Sequence record: PZ256263.1
DNA length: 64,000 nucleotides
Strand: one strand, 5' to 3'
DNA from: a phage
This document shows, in pieces, positions 28,702 through 52,059 of this stretch (the first letter of the stretch is position 1; each line of letters starts with the position of its first letter). A model generated the notes under the pieces. The model was not told where the DNA came from, searched no databases, and worked only from the letters and a program-made list of their open reading frames with translations. The translations under genes were made by a program, and so were the position numbers.

Positions 28702-28710
28702 TATACATTA
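28702..28710 (-). promoter_or_regulatory. TAATGTATA motif on the minus strand, antisense orientation in a + strand noncoding region
   Basis: Plus strand reads tatacatta; no minus-strand ATG in the next 180 nt downstream. Confidence 0.35.
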
Positions 28711-28762
28711 CCGTTAGTGAGTATCTACTACCAATAAAATGATACTTATCTTACAAAAGTTA

Positions 28763-28771
28763 TAATGTATA
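28763..28771 (+). promoter_or_regulatory. TAATGTATA motif, candidate phage-sigma-dependent promoter for the SSB-like gene
   Basis: Exact motif about 46 nt upstream of AAGGA and the ATG at 28831. Confidence 0.5.
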
Positions 28772-28830
28772 TTATACATAACCGCTCAAAGAGAGCAACA
28801 ATCTATCAAATTAAATAAGGAAATTAAAAT

Positions 28831-29577
28831 ATGTCTATGATTCCAACTATCGCAACTTCTTCCCGTAAATCCAACTACGACATCATCCCTGATGGTGAGT
28901 ATGAAGCACGTATTGTTCGTGTAGTAGGTTTGGGTGTTCACAATCGTGACCCTTGGGTTGACCCGAAGACCAAAGCAGTAACTCCTAAGAATCCAGCTTT
29001 CCGTATGGATTTGGCTTTCGAGCTGATTGGTGTTGATGCTACTGGTAAAGATTCCGATGGTAAGGCATTAGAACCACGTCCTGCTTGCCAGTTCAAGAGT
29101 TATGATGTAAACCCACGAGCTAAGAACTCTGGTATTCTTGATCTCTGCAAGATGATTGACCCAAGCATTCAAGCACTGAAAGGTGATCTGTCTTGGTTTA
29201 AGGATGTGCTGTTAGGTCAGCCTGTTAACATTCTGGTTAACTCTTACACTAACAAAGCTGGTGAAGTTAAAAACTCCATCAAGACCATTTCTCCAATCCC
29301 AACCAAATATCGTGCAGCAGTTGGTGAAGCTCGTAGCCCTCTGGTATTCTTCGAACCGTATGCTGAAACCGATGAGAACGTAGCATCCTATCAACTGATG
29401 TTCCCGTTCCAGCGCAACCTGCTTACTCAAGCTAATGACGCTAAGAACATGCCTCTGGCTGGTCGTGAAATTACTCGTGCTTCTGAAACAGAGCAGAAAG
29501 AAGCTACCCCTTCAATCCCTACGATTGATAAAGAGCCTGCTTCTACTTACGAAGACGACAACGATAGCCCATTCTAA
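28831..29577 (+). CDS. single-stranded DNA-binding protein-like
   Basis: Track ORF 248 aa; acidic C-terminal tail ending YEDDNDSPF (terminal aromatic as in SSB/T7 gp2.5 tails); own promoter motif and terminator. Confidence 0.5.
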   Translation: MSMIPTIATSSRKSNYDIIPDGEYEARIVRVVGLGVHNRDPWVDPKTKAVTPKNPAFRMDLAFELIGVDATGKDSDGKALEPRPACQFKSYDVNPRAKNSGILDLCKMIDPSIQALKGDLSWFKDVLLGQPVNILVNSYTNKAGEVKNSIKTISPIPTKYRAAVGEARSPLVFFEPYAETDENVASYQLMFPFQRNLLTQANDAKNMPLAGREITRASETEQKEATPSIPTIDKEPASTYEDDNDSPF

Positions 29578-29598
29578 TAACTCTCCTTGTTATAGCTT

Positions 29599-29621
29599 AG
29601 CCACCTCCGGGTGGCTTTTTT
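29599..29621 (+). terminator. rho-independent terminator
   Basis: 7-bp stem agccacc/ggtggct with tccg loop followed by tttttt, 20 nt after SSB-like stop. Confidence 0.7.
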
Positions 29622-29634
29622 CGTTGGAGACAAC

Positions 29635-29985
29635 ATGCAAAACACATTAAGTGATAACTTAGGGTTTATCGTTTTCTCGGCTCTTGTATTCTTTGGTGGT
29701 ATGAAGTTTAACGAGTACCAAACAGACAGCAGTAATCTGGACAAAGAGAAGCACCAGCAAGAGTTAGAGATTGAAAGAAGTAGAGCAGCTGATGAAGTTG
29801 CTCAGAGGGTTCTTACCGGTTTATCTAACTGGAAGAAGAACACGGAAACCGTTTATAAAGAGATGCATTATGAGAAAACTAAACCAGTTTTTTATAATGT
29901 CTGCGCTAGTGATGAGTATGTCAGCTTGTTCAATGAGCGACAACAGCAGGCAATCAATGCCCTTACCAACAAACCTAAAAGCTGA
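29635..29985 (+). CDS. i-spanin-like (Rz-like) protein
   Basis: Internal ATG of track ORF 29611 with GGAGA upstream; N-terminal TM LGFIVFSALVFFGG then charged helical region. Confidence 0.5.
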   Translation: MQNTLSDNLGFIVFSALVFFGGMKFNEYQTDSSNLDKEKHQQELEIERSRAADEVAQRVLTGLSNWKKNTETVYKEMHYEKTKPVFYNVCASDEYVSLFNERQQQAINALTNKPKS

Positions 29986-30129
29986 ATGTAGGGTTGACCT
30001 GCCTCTTTTAGAAAGTGCTCAAGGAAAAGCACTAGCCACTACGTTGGAGTGGTATCAGGACCAGTACACAGAATGTGCTGCCAATCACAATGGATTGCTA
30101 GAAGCTCTGAAAGAGCGTGGAATAGAATA

Positions 30130-30130
<1 letters not shown>
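29870..30130 (+). CDS. o-spanin-like (Rz1-like) lipoprotein, +1 frame overlapping i-spanin 3' end
   Basis: Internal ATG of track ORF 29771; MRKLNQFFIMSALVMSMSAC signal with lipobox-like MSAC; Pro-containing mature part. Confidence 0.45.
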
Positions 30131-31616
<1,486 letters not shown>

Positions 31617-34134: not shown

Positions 34135-37100
34135 TCACTCCTTAGGTCGAACTCTTACACGGAGTCTCGATTGACGCTTACTGCGTTCAAGCTTCTCTGA
34201 CAATGAGCCACGTTTAATCTTCGGCTTCCCTTCGTCATTAAACTTCTCCAAGAACTGCAAGTACTCAGTACGATTAGTTGTCTTGTAAGAAGGAATCTTA
34301 ATATCAGGGTTCTCTTCAATCACACGTCTAATCTTCGCTACATCATCCCTACCAAGCAACTTACTCTTAGCCTGTTCAGCTGTAGAACCAAAGATCTTCT
34401 CCAGTGCTCTGGATTTGTTACCACCTGCGGAAGAAGCACCAAGTTTAGCAATGGCAGAGTAATCATCAGCACTAAACCAAGCTACTGGATTATCACCATA
34501 CTTCTTCTTGTTTTCAGCAGCAGTCTGCAATGCACGTACAAATCGACGGTTGTTACCAGCCTTATCTGCACCATGAACCCTGTCTAAAACTTCAGCCACA
34601 CTAGCCAACTCATCCAAGCTCTTCCCACTCAAGAAAGCTTTCTCTACTTTATCAGCAAATACCTCTTCCTGTTGTTTAATGCTTTCCAAGATATCAGAAT
34701 TTGCTTGAGATCTTTCATCATCAGGCAGAGCAGAACGAATCTTCTCCATCTCCAACTCTTCCTCTTGCAGTTTCTTAATATCAGAGTCAACCTTCTGAGC
34801 CTCCTCAACAGCCTTCCTAGTATCCGCATCCAAGTTATCAAGCTTACCTTCAGTATCTCCAGTAACCTTAACAATCTCTTTCTCGATAGGAGTCATTGAT
34901 TCGTACTTCTTAGCAAACTTCTCAACATCAGCTTCGATACGAGAACGAGCATTCTGATGTTCAGTAGGAGTCATAGGCTTCTCAAGAAGTGCATAACGGT
35001 TATCCATATAGGAACCAGCAAATGCTTCAGCATCCTCTCTAGATATGCCCTTATCTTCCATAGTACGCATCAGGCGGCGATGAATGTCATCACGTTGACG
35101 TTGTACTGCCATAAGGTCATTCTCACGCTCTTGAGCTGCTTTAAGCTCTTCACTGCGCTTAACTCTCTTGTCCACATCAAACTTACGGTTCATCTCTTCC
35201 GCTTGCTCATACATCTTGTTCAACTTGGCCTGACGAGCATCTTCCTCTGCATCAGTTAAACGACGCTGACGATCAAGGTAATCTGACTCGGCGTTGTGGA
35301 TACGTTCAATATAACTACGGAACTTCTCTGGAGGAACTGGAGAGTTCTTGTCATGGTGAGCAGCCAACTGTTTCAATGTACGAGATTCCTGAGCCTCACG
35401 AACAGGTTTAGGTAAACCTTCCATCATCTTCTCAATCTCACTCTTCTGAGCTGCAATAGCCTCTAGAGTTTTACGTTCATTCTCAACAGCAGCCTTAGCA
35501 TCTGAACGAGCCTGAGCCTTTTTCCTGAGGGTAGCAAGACGTTCTTCACGAGCCTGTAAGTGCTTAGCAGCAGCTTCGTACTGAGAGTTCTTGTTAGCTT
35601 TGTTGAAGGCATTCACTTCTCTGTTGTAGGTGTTGATAAACCCATCCCAAATATCCTTCATCTGACCAACTTCCAAAGCCTCTTCCCTACCAGCCTTCTC
35701 TGAAGATTTAAACTTCCCATCTACAAAGTCATTCATCAGCTTACGCATAGCATCTTTCTGAGCAGGACGTAAAGGTTCTGAATCAATCAAAGTATCAATC
35801 TCAGACTGAAGCTCTTTCTTCTGGTCAACCAGTTTAGGAGCATCCTTCTTATCGAAAGCTTTGTTTTCTTCTAGAGCTTGTTGATACAGTCTATCAAACT
35901 CATCCTCACGCTGCTTCTGATACAACCTTTCAGCACGACGTTTCAGACTATCTAAGTTAGTTACGTTCCCACCTAAACCTTTCTCTTCAGCACGTAATGC
36001 CTTAGTAGCAATATCTTCTGGCAGACCACGTTCCTTAACCCATTCAGCAAAATTAGTTCGTACAGTGTTGTTCTTAGCAGTAGCAATACCTTGCTGAGAA
36101 GCCAGCTGGTTACGAGCCATTTCTTCATGACGTTCAGTGTTGATAGCATTATCTTCCTGACGAATACGACGCATCAATTCCTTAGGATCACCCTTATAAG
36201 CCAAGAAGTTTTCAGCAGTAGCCTTAGCCTTAGCAGCCTTAGAGTACAGAGAACGAGCAAAACGTTCTGCACGATCTTTAGTAGCCTGACGAGCAGCACT
36301 AGACATAGCAGCTAAACGTTCTACACCACTTGCCGGTTTAACGTCCTGTACAGCTTCCTTAGGAGCTTTAGGAGCACGGGCAGGTAATGGCTCAGCTTTG
36401 ACTGTTGGTTCCTCTACGGTAGGTTCTGGAGCCTGTGCGGCCTCTTCTTGAGCACGTTGCTGTTCCATTGCACGACGCTCCTCTAAAGGGTTACGAGCAG
36501 GGAGAGGTTCAGCCTGTGGAGCTTGTTCGACCGGAGCTTCTTGAGCAGCTGCTGCCTCTTCTTCAGCGCGACGCTGTTCAGCCTGACGGATAGCACGTCT
36601 TTGCGCAACTAAATCACGAGCTGTGAGAGAAGTTTCTTGAGGAGCAGAAGAAGGAAGATTTTCTTCCGTCACAGTACTAGAAGAAGGCTCCCGAACCGGT
36701 TCGGTTTCCACGTCATTTTGCGTCTTAAATTTAATGTCATCAACAACTGGTTCTTCTTCCATCTTAGCACGAGCTTCATCAGCAGTAGACTTAGCACGAG
36801 CAACTTCCAAATCACCACGAGCCAGAGAGCGGATAGCTTCACTGTTAGACTCTTGTTGCTTAACACGTTGAGAACGGGCACGCTGAGAAGAGAAGCGATT
36901 CAGAGCATACTTAGCAGCACCGAGAGTGTTCATTACCAGGCTAGGTGAAGAAGCCTCACGGAATCCATCATCAGTCAGGGAAGTCCAACCACGATCTTGG
37001 TTACTCATAAACTTAGCCGTATTGTTCAGAGTGTAAGCATCTTGGATAGGATTAAAACCTTCAGGCATACCTTTCAGTTTCTTCAACCCACCAATAGCTT

Positions 37101-48212: not shown

Positions 48213-49016
48213 TTAGCTAATACGTCTCCAAATGTGAGCTGCTCTGAATGGTGGCAAAGTGTTAATAGGTTGACGAGAGATATCATCACGACCAAGACTT
48301 ACACTACCAGAGATTGTATGAGTGTGAGTATCATTATCAGTTCTCTGACTATATCCACCACCCGGACTATACCAGTTTGGCGAGCTGTTATGACCACTAG
48401 CATCTCCACGACCAAATACCATATTGTGACTGTGAGTATTACTGGATAGAGAGAAGCTGGAGCCATTAACTGTCATCAAAGGTACGTTCTCAGTTCGAAT
48501 AGTATTGAAGACACGACCACCAGTACCACCTGCTTGGAACTCAACTCTTTGAGCGTTAGGAACAGAACCATCAGGGTTTACTACACCAGTACCCATGATA
48601 ACACCAGTCACTTTAGCCCAAGAGCCAAACCCTAAGGAGATTGAATCACCGGGGTTAATGTCTTCTTCAGTGATGTAATAAGAACCGATTCGATAGAGCT
48701 TATTCTCCATCCAGTTCTTCATGAACGCTTCCATCTGGCCTTTAGTAACAACATCCTTGTCACCAGTTCCCGGAGTAACATTCTTGATCATAAGACCACC
48801 AACATCCATTGCATCACCAGTAAACTTGAGCTTCTCTGACATGATCTTAAAGGTGTCAGAATCTATATCAACTGGCTCTGTAACATTGGGGAATGTGTTC
48901 TGTAACGTTTGTTTAATGAGGCGGATTTGAGCCGCCCCTTCGTAGATGTAATCCCTGTCTCTAGGATAGAGTGGGTTTAAGTCGGTAATAACTACCGCAT
49001 TAGTTTCGATAGCCAA
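48213..49016 (-). CDS. tail fibre-like protein
   Basis: Track ORF 267 aa; IKNVTPGTGDKDVVTKGQM resembles the fibre N-terminal DAVN-type motif; Gly/Ser-rich C-terminus. Confidence 0.55.
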   Translation of the reverse strand: MAIETNAVVITDLNPLYPRDRDYIYEGAAQIRLIKQTLQNTFPNVTEPVDIDSDTFKIMSEKLKFTGDAMDVGGLMIKNVTPGTGDKDVVTKGQMEAFMKNWMENKLYRIGSYYITEEDINPGDSISLGFGSWAKVTGVIMGTGVVNPDGSVPNAQRVEFQAGGTGGRVFNTIRTENVPLMTVNGSSFSLSSNTHSHNMVFGRGDASGHNSSPNWYSPGGGYSQRTDNDTHTHTISGSVSLGRDDISRQPINTLPPFRAAHIWRRIS

Positions 49017-49028
49017 AAGGCACCTCCA

Positions 49029-49520
49029 TTAATATTTACCTTCGGTGTAAAGATTAGCTTCTGCAACTCTTCTATTATGAAGACCCTGACTTCTCTGCTT
49101 CTCTCCCTTGACCGTTATTTTATCCCAACGAAGAAATTCGGAATAAACATCCCCCTTAACATCTCCATTGATTACCTTCCTTAACTTAGATGTGCTCAAA
49201 GCCCCACTGCCAACATTGAAGTTGAAAGAAGTGAGTGCATCAAACTCATGAACTAGTAAAGGAACCTTTATGTTCTTCTGAGTAGCACGAACAGAGTCTT
49301 GTGTGTCTCTATCTAGCAGAGCTAGACAATCCTCTATAGAATACGTTAATCCTTGTCTAACCGGATAACCATTCATATCGCGCGTAGCCCCTACACATAT
49401 AGTCCAGATACCTGCGGAATCTTTATAAGCCTTTGTTCTCATACCCTCATGCTTCATGATGAATTCCATTCCAGCTGGGCTTAAGTTTAGTTGTACAGGT
49501 GGCAATGCGACGTTATCCAT
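49029..49520 (-). CDS. endolysin, GH24 lysozyme (T4 e-like)
   Basis: Track ORF 163 aa; MKHEGMRTKAYKDSAGIWTICVGAT matches the catalytic EG...Y.D..G..TIG.G motif. Confidence 0.85.
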   Translation of the reverse strand: MDNVALPPVQLNLSPAGMEFIMKHEGMRTKAYKDSAGIWTICVGATRDMNGYPVRQGLTYSIEDCLALLDRDTQDSVRATQKNIKVPLLVHEFDALTSFNFNVGSGALSTSKLRKVINGDVKGDVYSEFLRWDKITVKGEKQRSQGLHNRRVAEANLYTEGKY

Positions 49521-49549: not shown

Positions 49550-49768
49550 TTAAGGTAGTATCTTTCTCAGAGCGTTAGATTCAGCATCAGGGCAAATAAC
49601 AACTAAGTTATTTTGAATTGTTCTCTGCTTGCATTGAGAGCTAAGCTTCTCTACTGGAGCAGGGACAGTTACTAATGGATGAACTGCGCCTACAGGAACT
49701 GCGGTGGATACCACAACACCTGCGCCTAAACATATTAAACCATATGCAGCTTGTTTCATCATTTTCAT
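49550..49768 (-). CDS. small secreted/membrane protein immediately upstream of endolysin
   Basis: Track ORF 72 aa; N-terminal hydrophobic segment; GGAGA upstream. Confidence 0.45.
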   Translation of the reverse strand: MKMMKQAAYGLICLGAGVVVSTAVPVGAVHPLVTVPAPVEKLSSQCKQRTIQNNLVVICPDAESNALRKILP

Positions 49769-49860: not shown

Positions 49861-52059
49861 TTACCTCTCTGCTAGTTTTGCTTCTAGAACTTCAATACGC
49901 TTCAGAAGGTCTTGAACAACCTGCATAGTATCAAGGAGCATAGGAGCTGAGTCTAGCTCTTTCTGTTCTTGCTCTACACCATCATTGTCGTGGAACCTAC
50001 GAGTCTTAACATAAAGAGGTTCTACCTTTTCTGCTTGCTGTGCAATAATACCACGACGAGTTCTTCCTTGCTCATCATTGTTATACACAAATGATTTGAA
50101 ATCCAAACCTTTAATAGCTTTGATAGCTTTCTCAGGGGAAATATCTTGGATATCATGTTTTAATCTTTCATCTGACACGGGATTCAGAGCAAGAGTGTAT
50201 GTTCCAGTAGAGCCGGGTTGCCAAGTATAATATAAAATCTCATTCCTGTTTGGTCGAAGTGTTAGACGGCAACCGTATTTGTTGTCTTCATCACCTGCAA
50301 CGTGCCAGCAAGAATCGGCAAAAGTTCCGGCGTCGTTGTGAATCATGCCAACATGAGTGGTGGTCTTGTATCCCCCACTAGATGATTGAGAAGCACTTAG
50401 TATGGAATTGAAGGAGAAGTTAGACCCTAGCCCTTGGTTGTCCATGGAGAATGTTCCTTTCCTAGCTCCTGTTTCACTCCAAGACATCAAAGTGCCAAAT
50501 CTAGAAACATACCTATCAGAATTCAGTGTACCAGAATCGTCGAAAGCTAACTGCTTGGTAACTCCTTTAGTTTTATTGTAGACGTCAATGATTCCATAGT
50601 AAGCTCCGTTGATGTAGGCATCAGTTTTGAGAGTAGTAGAAGCTTCTACTTCTGAACCGATTTTATACTCAGAGACAACTGACCCACTAGAAACTTTCGT
50701 TCCATTGGAAGGTCGTGTGGTGTCACTATTAATAACAGACCAAGAAGTATTAGCAGCAACAAATCCACCATGAGCACGAATAGTCCAAACCCCCACAAAG
50801 TTTCTCGGTATAATGTTGTCAGAGATACTATAACGACCATAAACTGGGTTGGACCGGCTTGCGTCGAAGACTAGAGTATTATTACGTCCATCAACTGCAC
50901 CGGACCCCGGAGGTATAGTGTCCCCTCCACCAGCCGGATACAAACTGTTATCCGTATAGAATGAATCTTGCACAGACGTCCCGAATATCCCTGCATAAGT
51001 CCCGGCTGATACACCAGCGACCTTACCTTTGATATTGGGTGCAGCAGAATCATAGATAACACCATTGTTAGATGATGTACCACCATCACCGCGACCAAAT
51101 AACTCCTTAATAGAACCAACCTGAACCCCGTTGCGGTCTGGAACGCGGAAAGTAGTAGAACCGTCACCAGTAGAGTACTGTCCACGTTTTTGGGCATCAC
51201 TAAGCCATTCAGAATCTGAGATAGGGGATAACAGCTGTGCATAAGCCCAGAGATCTGGGTACTCTGAACGATTAAGAAGCTGACCGTCTGACGTTACCTC
51301 AAAAGCTGGAATAAAAGCTCGACTGTCACGTAAATGGAAATCACCAATACCAAAGTTAGAGATACCGCTCATCGTAGGACCACCAGAGCCACCACCACTG
51401 TTTCGAAGCTGTCTCAAAGTAACCGCATCATAATCACCAACTGCATCAGGGACAGTTACTGGTTGAGTGAAAGTAACTTTCTGTGTGAGCTGTTTGATAT
51501 CAGAGTTAATCCCTGTACGAGTAACACCTACCGTACGACCTTTAGAGTCTTTAACATAAGAACCAATTGCAGCAAAAGGCAAATCCTCAATCTCAGGACG
51601 GTAACGTTTAGAATAAACTGGATACTTAGTTTCTACCCCAGAGTCATTCTGGTCAACAACCTGAAGACGACCAGCAGAATGAATCTCTACACCTTGAACT
51701 GAAGAGGCATAACTACCAATCTTGATTGAGTTATCAGTAGTAACTTTCATCATATCAACTGATTCTACACCATTAGCTCCAGTAGAACGGAATGGGGTAT
51801 CATTAACAACCCAAGGGTCTTCTCGGAACAGCGCACCAGACATAATAGGTTGAATCGAATCCAGCACAAAATCTTTAGATGCACCCTCTGTTTTAGTTTG
51901 ATAGGTAGCAGCTGCGTCGGTTTTCTGTAAATATTTTCCGGTGAGGTTAATAGCTCCAGCCTGTCCATCTACAGTAGAAACCCCAACAACAGCCGCGTCT
52001 CTGGTTACAACCACATGAGGCATCATTATACCAGATTTGGGCATTAATTCTCTAGACAT
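49861..52059 (-). CDS. tail fibre/tailspike with C-terminal intramolecular chaperone (peptidase S74-like) domain
   Basis: Track ORF 732 aa; C-terminal SDERLKHDIQDISPEKAIKAIKGLDFKSFVYN matches the auto-cleaving chaperone motif. Confidence 0.75.
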   Translation of the reverse strand: MSRELMPKSGIMMPHVVVTRDAAVVGVSTVDGQAGAINLTGKYLQKTDAAATYQTKTEGASKDFVLDSIQPIMSGALFREDPWVVNDTPFRSTGANGVESVDMMKVTTDNSIKIGSYASSVQGVEIHSAGRLQVVDQNDSGVETKYPVYSKRYRPEIEDLPFAAIGSYVKDSKGRTVGVTRTGINSDIKQLTQKVTFTQPVTVPDAVGDYDAVTLRQLRNSGGGSGGPTMSGISNFGIGDFHLRDSRAFIPAFEVTSDGQLLNRSEYPDLWAYAQLLSPISDSEWLSDAQKRGQYSTGDGSTTFRVPDRNGVQVGSIKELFGRGDGGTSSNNGVIYDSAAPNIKGKVAGVSAGTYAGIFGTSVQDSFYTDNSLYPAGGGDTIPPGSGAVDGRNNTLVFDASRSNPVYGRYSISDNIIPRNFVGVWTIRAHGGFVAANTSWSVINSDTTRPSNGTKVSSGSVVSEYKIGSEVEASTTLKTDAYINGAYYGIIDVYNKTKGVTKQLAFDDSGTLNSDRYVSRFGTLMSWSETGARKGTFSMDNQGLGSNFSFNSILSASQSSSGGYKTTTHVGMIHNDAGTFADSCWHVAGDEDNKYGCRLTLRPNRNEILYYTWQPGSTGTYTLALNPVSDERLKHDIQDISPEKAIKAIKGLDFKSFVYNNDEQGRTRRGIIAQQAEKVEPLYVKTRRFHDNDGVEQEQKELDSAPMLLDTMQVVQDLLKRIEVLEAKLAER

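Follow-up and report, generated by a model that had tools for sequence, protein, structure and literature searches.

A probable overlapped spanin gene pair located apart from the endolysin gene in a phiEco32-like phage

Introduction

For the two-component spanins of the overlapped class, Summer 2007 is reportedly a source to be named beside Kongari 2018. According to the standard model of spanin action, the complex is restrained by the peptidoglycan and subsequently brings about membrane fusion (PMC6139136). The spanin genes of phage T4 (pseT.3/pseT.2) do not lie near the holin gene t or the endolysin gene e, and they complement lambda Rz-am Rz1-am (PMC6139136).

The closest described counterparts of the locus studied here are recorded in SpaninDB, in which the pair of phage PhiEco32 is labelled "ovl", with coordinates 35417-35768 for the i-spanin and 35272-35533 for the o-spanin, and an overlap of 116 nt (Kongari et al. 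2018, PMC6139136). The phiEco32 proteins were assigned to the JH2 (i-spanin) and NJ01 (o-spanin) families, where BLASTCLUST joins sequences into a family if they share ≥40% identity across ≥40% of their length (PMC6139136). The SpaninDB tables also give the spanin sequences of NJ01, KBNP1711, and ECBP2, which are nearly identical to those reported below, and the curators shifted the o-spanin start upstream with the remark "they got wrong start" (PMC6139136).

Here, we describe the corresponding pair in a 64-kb stretch of phage DNA, which was analyzed as a whole and is referred to as the window. The pair itself is already known, both from SpaninDB (2018) and from the GenBank annotations of two phages: the record of Paul lists gp036 as "Rz-like spanin" and gp035 as "o-spanin", and an o-spanin is annotated in ShigP1. 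Our search of the published literature turned up no experimental work on this spanin sequence family.

Results

Relatives of the window and of the two proteins

A 2.9-kb stretch around the gene pair displays 95-97% DNA identity to ~70 phiEco32-like podophages of E. coli and Shigella. The window thus belongs to a phiEco32-like podophage (Kuravirus, Gordonclarkvirinae; ~97% nucleotide identity), whose relatives include ev_rybdy3, SGF2, phiEco32, SU10, and Paul, and the order of phiEco32 genes 40 to 34 is matched in the window. At the protein level, the i-spanin is 99% identical to phi32_39, 100% identical to Paul gp036, and 94% identical to an NJ01-like sequence, and the o-spanin is 100% identical to the extended ORF of phiEco32, 98.8% identical to Paul gp035, and 96.5% identical to the NJ01-like sequence. 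The values obtained against phiEco32 (99% and 100%) place the two proteins in the JH2 and NJ01 families, respectively. Substitutions are accordingly few, such as S49N in the i-spanin relative to phiEco32 and M22T in the o-spanin relative to Paul.

More distant members were also recovered. A scan of IMG/VR with an i-spanin protein pattern returned 6 loci, and a tblastn search of the GenBank phage collection yielded 195 hits, each of them covering at least 80% of the 86-aa o-spanin query. The distinct relatives used in the comparisons below include a KBNP1711-like sequence, ECBP2, an 88-kb IMG/VR contig (L008), the Proteus phage RS10pmA, the Salmonella phages 9NA and Solent (Sashavirus), and the Erwinia phage M7.

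The i-spanin gene and its product

The i-spanin gene occupies positions 29635..29985 on the + strand, with an ATG at 29635 and a TGA at 29983-29985, and encodes 116 aa. We read a Shine-Dalgarno (SD) sequence, GGAGA, at 29626..29630 (+), and SpaninDB marks GGAG(A) for NJ01 and KBNP1711. The assignment is based on PHROG 1152 ("Rz-like spanin"), which matched residues 3-116 with an E value of 2.7e-37, and on the identity to phi32_39 and Paul gp036 given above.

Hydropathy analysis (Kyte-Doolittle, 15-residue sliding window) identified a single hydrophobic segment in this protein, at about residues 8-24 (maximum 2.23), and the annotation of Paul gp036 contains a TMD at 8-23 (TMpred). The 90 aa beyond this segment form a domain in which E, K, and Q abound, and the sole Cys of the protein is at position 90. 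An AF2 single-sequence model, which is of low confidence (pLDDT 56), places helices at residues 3-25, 36-76, and 79-111. In addition, W66, N69, E80, N88, C90, N100, and E101 showed no variation in 8 relatives. The N-terminal tail, MQNTLSDN, carries a net negative charge, as is also remarked in SpaninDB for NJ01, and therefore the positive-inside rule alone gives no support for an N-in topology. The tails of the distant homologues from 9NA, Solent, RS10pmA, and M7 contain K or R.

The o-spanin gene and its product

The o-spanin gene lies in the +1 frame at 29870..30130 (+), from an ATG at 29870 to a TAA at 30128-30130, and encodes 86 aa; it was assigned by PHROG 2425 and by identity to the phiEco32 and Paul proteins. 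An SD-like AAAGAG at 29857..29862 (+), located 7 nt 5' of the ATG and marked as an SD in SpaninDB, is kept in all Kuravirus and Suseptimavirus relatives.

The first 19 residues (29870-29926, +) have the features of a signal peptide that ends in the lipobox MSA-C, with Cys20 encoded at 29927-29929. The N-terminus reads MRKLNQFFIMSALVMSMSA, followed by CSMSD after the predicted cleavage site, and combines the basic residues R2 and K3, an uncharged hydrophobic region, the M-S-A-C motif, and a Ser at +2. The residue at lipobox position -3 is Met, where the strict consensus is [LVI]. This N-terminus matches a PROSITE PS51257-style lipoprotein rule, and its +2 residue is Ser rather than Asp, the latter being excluded for outer-membrane sorting. 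Over its six frames, the window contains 586 ORF variants that start with Met and reach 50 aa or more; the same rule was matched only at the o-spanin locus and at a second one (4795/4834), and the product of the latter is a cytoplasmic-looking protein. Paul gp035, the lipobox of which is identical, has a LipoP SpII value of 18.03 with cleavage between residues 19 and 20.

The mature o-spanin would comprise 67 aa, including Cys40, Cys69, and 3 Pro. Its AlphaFold single-sequence model suggests a C-terminal helix, again with low confidence (pLDDT 56 and 61 for the two spanin models). The match to PHROG 2425, a family that bears no function label, extends over residues 6-84 (E 3.7e-26), and a weak match was obtained to PHROG 456, "Rz-like spanin" (E 0.0093). 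A Pfam scan of both spanins at E ≤0.01 matched no family, nor did an NCBIfam scan. Since neither collection offers a matching spanin model and only PHROGs recognises the proteins, we rejected the two proteins as members of the lambda Rz/Rz1 sequence families; the link to lambda is architectural and not sequence-based.

The start codon, the SD, the hydrophobic region, and the lipobox Cys of the o-spanin were found in every one of the 8 distinct relatives, the identity falling as low as 33%. Residues C20, Y66, C69, A70, and N74-G75-L76 were free of variation in the 8 relatives. With respect to the cysteines predicted to be periplasmic, C90 of the i-spanin and C69 of the o-spanin are invariant, and C40 of the o-spanin is present in 7 of the 8.

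Other starts for the o-spanin were considered and rejected. A TTG-start ORF (29771-30130, 119 aa) would bury the signal peptide, and its extension contains stops in ECBP2, the KBNP1711-like sequence, and L008. An ATG at 29897 (MSALVMSMSAC) would leave the product without a basic N-terminal region, and the conserved start with its SD is the one at 29870.

An earlier, sequence-only reading of this DNA had proposed an i-spanin with an N-terminal TM and a charged helical domain at 29635-29985, as well as a +1-frame ORF at 29870-30130 with a signal peptide and an MSAC lipobox. Both proposals are borne out, the one by its coordinates, its hydropathy, the E/K/Q-rich 90-aa domain, and PHROG 1152, and the other by the lipoprotein rule, the LipoP SpII result for Paul, and the conserved Cys. 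The TM and lipoprotein-signal predictions that it had suggested as checks thus gave one segment at about residues 8-24 and a match to the PS51257-style rule. Its "Pro-containing body" needs correction, given that an o-spanin with 3 Pro in 67 residues is not proline-rich.

Constraint on two frames in the overlap

The two genes share 116 nt (29870..29985, +), a dual-coding overlap that specifies residues 79-116 of the i-spanin and residues 1-38 of the o-spanin. Their starts are offset by 235 nt, i.e., by a +1 frame, and the o-spanin gene ends 145 nt beyond the i-spanin stop.

We calculated pairwise diversity by codon position for nine aligned relatives, a small sample in which several members are close to each other. 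Upstream of the overlap (29635-29869), diversity peaked at position 3 of the i-spanin frame (0.216 vs 0.05-0.06 at the other positions). Downstream of it (29986-30127), the maximum was at position 3 of the o-spanin frame (0.267 vs 0.02-0.125), and the minimum was at position 2 (0.020). Total diversity within the overlap was 0.056, which is about half of that in the flanking single-coding parts (0.109 and 0.138), as is expected where both frames are constrained. The switch of frame at the i-spanin stop is clear despite the small sample, and both ORFs stand above chance.

Neighbouring genes and transcription signals

Upstream of the spanins, the nearest promoter element of the gp36 (phage sigma) type, TAATGTATA, is located at 28763..28771 (+), ~60 nt 5' of a gene-40 homologue, and reproduces the published consensus tAATGTAtA exactly. 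In phiEco32, gene 40 is one of six genes downstream of mapped gp36-dependent promoters (PMC8948821), and by homology the element in the window would be active as a promoter. The gene-40 homologue itself (28831..29577, +) encodes 248 aa of unknown function, matches PHROG 6599 (E 1.2e-118), and is syntenic with phi32_40. In the divergent contig L008, 476 nt separate the corresponding gene from the spanin pair on its 3' side, and this interval holds two small ORFs.

Between gene 40 and the SD of the i-spanin gene, a terminator scan identified an intrinsic terminator at 29599..29621 (+), in which the hairpin AGCCACC-TCCG-GGTGGCT precedes a T run. It is annotated as a terminator in Paul, and the hairpin is kept in the phiEco32, Paul, NJ01-like, KBNP1711-like, and ECBP2 sequences. 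Since the gp36-type element precedes gene 40 and the terminator stands in between, the spanin genes are probably transcribed by read-through.

The spanin genes belong to the leftward middle-gene block, in which they are upstream of the macro-domain and sigma-factor genes, and the o-spanin stop shares the sequence TAATG with the start of the macro-domain gene. In secondary descriptions of phiEco32, this block is of the middle class, and the spanin genes would be expressed accordingly. The absence of linkage to the holin and endolysin genes, the location behind a terminator, and the membership in a middle-gene block are features of the locus that count against a spanin.

The endolysin, the putative holin, and the dispersal of the lysis genes

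The endolysin gene (49029..49520, - strand) encodes a GH24, T4-lysozyme-type enzyme of 163 aa (PF00959, E 3.7e-32; PHROG 7, endolysin, E 4e-46), the equivalent of phi32_17. Its lysozyme domain covers residues 23-154, and the protein has no additional C-terminal cationic or amphipathic domain. Hydropathy analysis found neither a hydrophobic window nor an SAR segment at its N-terminus, and an endolysin lacking a hydrophobic N-terminus is of the soluble type rather than the SAR type. A combination of SAR endolysin and pinholin was ruled out on the same ground.

Directly 5' of the endolysin gene is a putative holin gene (49550..49768, -), which takes its label from annotation: its 72-aa product matches PHROG 11161, "holin" (E 2.8e-50), is identical to phi32_16 (gp16), which is listed as a holin in phiEco32, and contains a single hydrophobic segment near residues 7-29. 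The neighbours on either side of the two genes encode a tail fibre (49861-52059) and a tail protein (48213-49016). The ORF at 18748-18927 was also considered as a holin and is not supported, its two hydrophobic segments being accompanied by an unlabelled PHROG and no lysis context.

The spanins and the endolysin are encoded 19.9 kb apart and on opposite strands. The dispersal of the lysis genes is real, and it is already known. The sequence-only reading had anticipated this dispersal and had placed a GH24 endolysin among tail genes on the other strand, and on both points our analysis (PF00959 and the two tail genes as neighbours) agrees with it. It had, however, stated that no holin was obvious next to either the spanins or the endolysin, which is contradicted by the PHROG 11161 match adjoining the latter. 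Of the two holin candidates that it had offered, 49550-49768 is supported by our analysis and 18748-18927 is not.

Discussion

We conclude that the pair is very probably a two-component spanin of the overlapped type, acting at the last step of lysis of a Gram-negative host. The ORFs, their signal features, their conservation, the dual-coding constraint, the homology, and the synteny were all observed in this analysis. From these observations we infer how the proteins would be oriented in the membrane and lipidated, that they would form a complex and fuse membranes, and when they would be expressed, as follows. The N-terminal TM of the 116-aa i-spanin would serve as its anchor in the inner membrane, with its mostly helical 90-aa domain extending into the periplasm. 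The 86-aa o-spanin would be exported, cut by signal peptidase II before Cys20, and anchored in the outer membrane as a lipoprotein. The two subunits' periplasmic domains would then bind each other through their C-terminal parts, and the complex would probably be stabilised by disulfides via C90 of the i-spanin and C40 and C69 of the o-spanin. Such a complex would cross the periplasm and be held back by the mesh of peptidoglycan. At a late stage of infection, the putative holin would give the soluble GH24 endolysin access to the wall, and after wall degradation the spanin complexes would fuse the inner and outer membranes, which would lead to virion release. Given that a spanin is inert until the wall is gone, co-regulation with the holin and endolysin would be unnecessary, and both unlinked genes and earlier expression could be tolerated, for which T4 pseT.3/pseT.2 provides a precedent.

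The location of the pair could also be read in terms of envelope proteins that serve a non-lytic function, e.g., a receptor-blocking or superinfection-excluding lipoprotein made from the middle phase, such as T5 Llp and the Cor proteins, in which case the TM protein might be a partner of the lipoprotein or an unrelated neighbour. Such a role would suit two genes that stand 19.9 kb from the holin and endolysin genes, on the other strand, in a middle-gene block beside the sigma-factor and macro-domain genes; that follow a gp36-type promoter element located before the gene-40 homologue; and of which one belongs to PHROG 2425, a family with no function label. We nevertheless consider it very unlikely. 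Homologous overlapped pairs occur directly after the endolysin (and holin) genes in 9NA, Solent, and RS10pmA, a gene context that links the family to lysis, and T4 demonstrates that spanins may be functional though unlinked. Furthermore, shared DNA, a predicted type II protein together with a lipoprotein, conserved periplasmic Cys, and C-terminal motifs constitute the signature of a spanin, and the window offers no other spanin candidate, the remaining match to the lipoprotein rule looking cytoplasmic.

Two further readings bear on the integrity of the pair. If the +1-frame product did not begin at 29870, the real protein might be a cytoplasmic one of 57 aa from the internal ATG at 29957, lacking a signal peptide, or the frame might be noncoding. 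We regard this as highly improbable, given that the 29870 ATG, AAAGAG, the signal regions, and Cys20 are kept down to 33% identity despite wide nucleotide divergence, whereas Met29 (29957) is not conserved, being replaced by Val in ECBP2 and by other residues in the 9NA group. The coverage of at least 80% of the 86 aa in all 195 tblastn hits, the halved diversity of the overlap, and the upstream start chosen by the SpaninDB curators argue in the same direction, against the records of phiEco32 (phi32_38), ECBP2 (ECBP2_0033), ev_rybdy3 (ev_rybdy3_00108), and others that call only the 174-nt version, and against the tendency of gene callers to disfavour long overlaps. It is also extremely improbable that the pair is a decaying remnant and that the outer membrane is disrupted by another agent, for instance a peptide of the disruptin type or a cationic tail on the endolysin. 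Neither frame is broken, and purifying selection acts on both in the sampled Gordonclarkvirinae (Kuravirus, Suseptimavirus, and the unclassified contig L008), and the endolysin lacks an extra C-terminal cationic or amphipathic domain; to be set against this are the separation from the lysis genes, the position downstream of a terminator, and the less common Met at lipobox -3.

With the pair taken as a spanin, its placement might itself be functional and not an accident. The complex could accumulate from the middle phase, long before the holin triggers, with the terminator setting its dose, or it could have a second role before lysis, for which envelope tethering or the exclusion of superinfecting phage would, if this were true, be candidates. 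We think it unlikely that the placement is functional in this sense. The idea draws on the middle-class block of phiEco32, the intrinsic terminator, and the TAATG overlap with the macro-domain gene.

The analysis is of little discovery value, and its practical value is for annotation. Many GenBank/RefSeq records, including the phiEco32 reference, carry a 57-aa internal-start fragment, named "hypothetical protein", in place of the o-spanin. As a result of these fragment calls and of the unlabelled PHROG, automated pipelines keep missing half of the spanin, and this in a phage group that is used for therapy.

Comparison with known spanin systems

Homologues of both subunits, with 30-40% identity and a likewise overlapped arrangement, are present in 9NA, Solent, RS10pmA, and M7. 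They have in common with the pair of the window the lipobox Cys, the C-A-x-x-x-N-G-L motif, and the N-x-C...F/Y-N-E motif of the i-spanin. In 9NA, Solent, and RS10pmA, the pair ends a contiguous lysis cassette, after an endolysin or peptidase gene, whereas the Kuravirus pair is detached. In Solent, a holin/antiholin gene stands between the endolysin gene and the pair, and the latter is annotated as i-spanin/o-spanin.

Lambda Rz/Rz1 resembles the present pair in functional class, in the topology predicted for the latter (an anchor in the inner membrane and a lipoprotein in the outer one), in its periplasmic cysteines, and in the +1 frame of the o-spanin. However, Rz1 is wholly embedded in Rz, whereas the o-spanin gene of the window passes the i-spanin stop. 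Moreover, Rz1 is rich in proline, which makes up 10 of its 40 residues, and is unstructured (PMC6139136), unlike the o-spanin described here, for which a C-terminal helix is predicted. The sequence-only reading had spoken of the "classic Rz/Rz1 overlap": the overlap stands, but the embedded lambda pair is the wrong comparison for overlapped genes, which are instead organized in the manner of P2 LysB/LysC (PMC6139136).

Compared with T4 PseT.3/PseT.2, the pair of the window is likewise unlinked to the holin and endolysin genes, and both o-spanins have two periplasmic Cys and a C-terminal helix (predicted in the case of the window). In contrast, the two T4 genes stand separately, Cys is absent from the T4 i-spanin, and SpaninDB places the T4 pair in another architecture class.

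In phage P2, lysB and lysC are located in the lysis cassette together with the holin and endolysin genes, unlike the detached pair of the window. In this prototype of the overlapped class, the +1-frame o-spanin gene likewise begins within the 3' portion of the i-spanin gene and continues beyond the i-spanin stop, and the products, a type II inner-membrane protein and an outer-membrane lipoprotein, are of the types predicted for the pair of the window (PMC6139136). The P2 spanins belong to separate i- and o-spanin families in SpaninDB and are set apart by that classification.

Finally, the phiEco32 gp39/gp38, NJ01, KBNP1711, ECBP2, and Paul pairs are essentially the same genes as those of the window, with both proteins 99-100% identical. 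They share with it the 116-nt overlap, the +1 frame, the SDs, the terminator, and the neighbours (gene 40, the macro-domain gene, and the gene for sigma gp36), and their architecture does not differ in any respect from that of the pair described here.

o-Spanin annotation in public records

Our analysis shows that the o-spanin annotation gap is still present after the SpaninDB correction of 2018 (PMC6139136). In the RefSeq/GenBank records of phiEco32 (phi32_38), ECBP2 (ECBP2_0033), and ev_rybdy3, the o-spanin, which spans 29870-30130 (+) in the window, is represented only by a 57-aa piece beginning at an internal Met, which lacks the signal peptide and is named "hypothetical protein." According to the RefSeq/GenBank calls, this piece corresponds to 29957-30130 (+) in the window and, in three loci from relatives, to L001 3658-3831, L010 688-861, and L002 3657-3830. 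PHROG 2425, the family that contains the o-spanin protein, is likewise labeled "unknown function."

In the published spanin table (PMC6139136, Additional file 5, Table S4), the "Frame" of phiEco32 is listed as 2, but its start-to-start distance is 235 nt, which equals +1. Gifsy-1 (- strand) and Gifsy-2 (+ strand) both have 223 nt start-to-start, yet they are assigned to frames 2 and 1, respectively (Table S4). The "Frame" value appears to flip with strand, and the number of -1-frame o-spanins counted in that study (116) may therefore be affected.

Signals surrounding the spanin genes

At the downstream end of the pair, the o-spanin TAA stop shares bases with the ATG start codon of the next gene, which encodes the macro-domain (Appr-1-p processing) protein (TAATG, 30128-30132, +). 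This overlap suggests that translation of the macro-domain gene is coupled to that of the spanin pair. Upstream of the i-spanin, a minimum-free-energy fold of the 70 nt preceding its start places a CUCUCC stretch and the GGAGA Shine-Dalgarno in a 5-bp outer stem enclosing the terminator hairpin (29597-29634, +). Erwinia phage M7 (locus L014, at about 340-375) also carries, immediately 5' of the i-spanin, a GC-rich hairpin with a T run after it. These predicted structures could conceivably serve in spanin dose control.

The divergent 88-kb contig IMGVR_UViG_3300013023_000001 (L008), whose i-spanin and o-spanin are 48% and 56% identical to those of the window, still has its overlapped spanin genes preceded by the gene-40 homologue (249-1978). 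Two additional small ORFs lie in between, one of which (1064-1291) encodes a long, Ser-rich, low-complexity C-terminal tail.

The promoter element TAATGTATA at 28763-28771 (+) and TTATGTATA at 28773-28781 (-) form two halves of an imperfect palindrome, and a further exact copy of the element is present at 28702-28710 on the minus strand. This arrangement (28702-28781) is possibly a divergent promoter or operator, and possibly due to chance. A strong sigma-70-like match (TGGACA-18-TATAAT, 11/12) was found at 30542-30571 (+), within the 3'-terminal part of the macro-domain gene and shortly before the gene for the phage sigma factor, which starts at 30590; host RNAP could drive sigma-factor expression from this predicted promoter. 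A gp36-type element, TAATGTTTA, with one mismatch, occurs at 30518-30526.

Holin candidates

The sequence-only reading had proposed 18748-18927 (+) as an alternative holin candidate. This ORF is located in the early/middle block. Its 59-aa product (PHROG 9296, unknown function) indeed contains a pair of hydrophobic segments, at about residues 1-20 and 35-59, and we found no other support for this candidacy. The putative holin (49550-49768, -) begins with MKMMK (49754-49768, -), identically to phiEco32 gp16. In lambda S, a Met1-Lys2-Met3 dual-start motif yields the holin S105 and the antiholin S107. The MKMMK start resembles that motif, and by analogy this single gene may encode a holin/antiholin pair.
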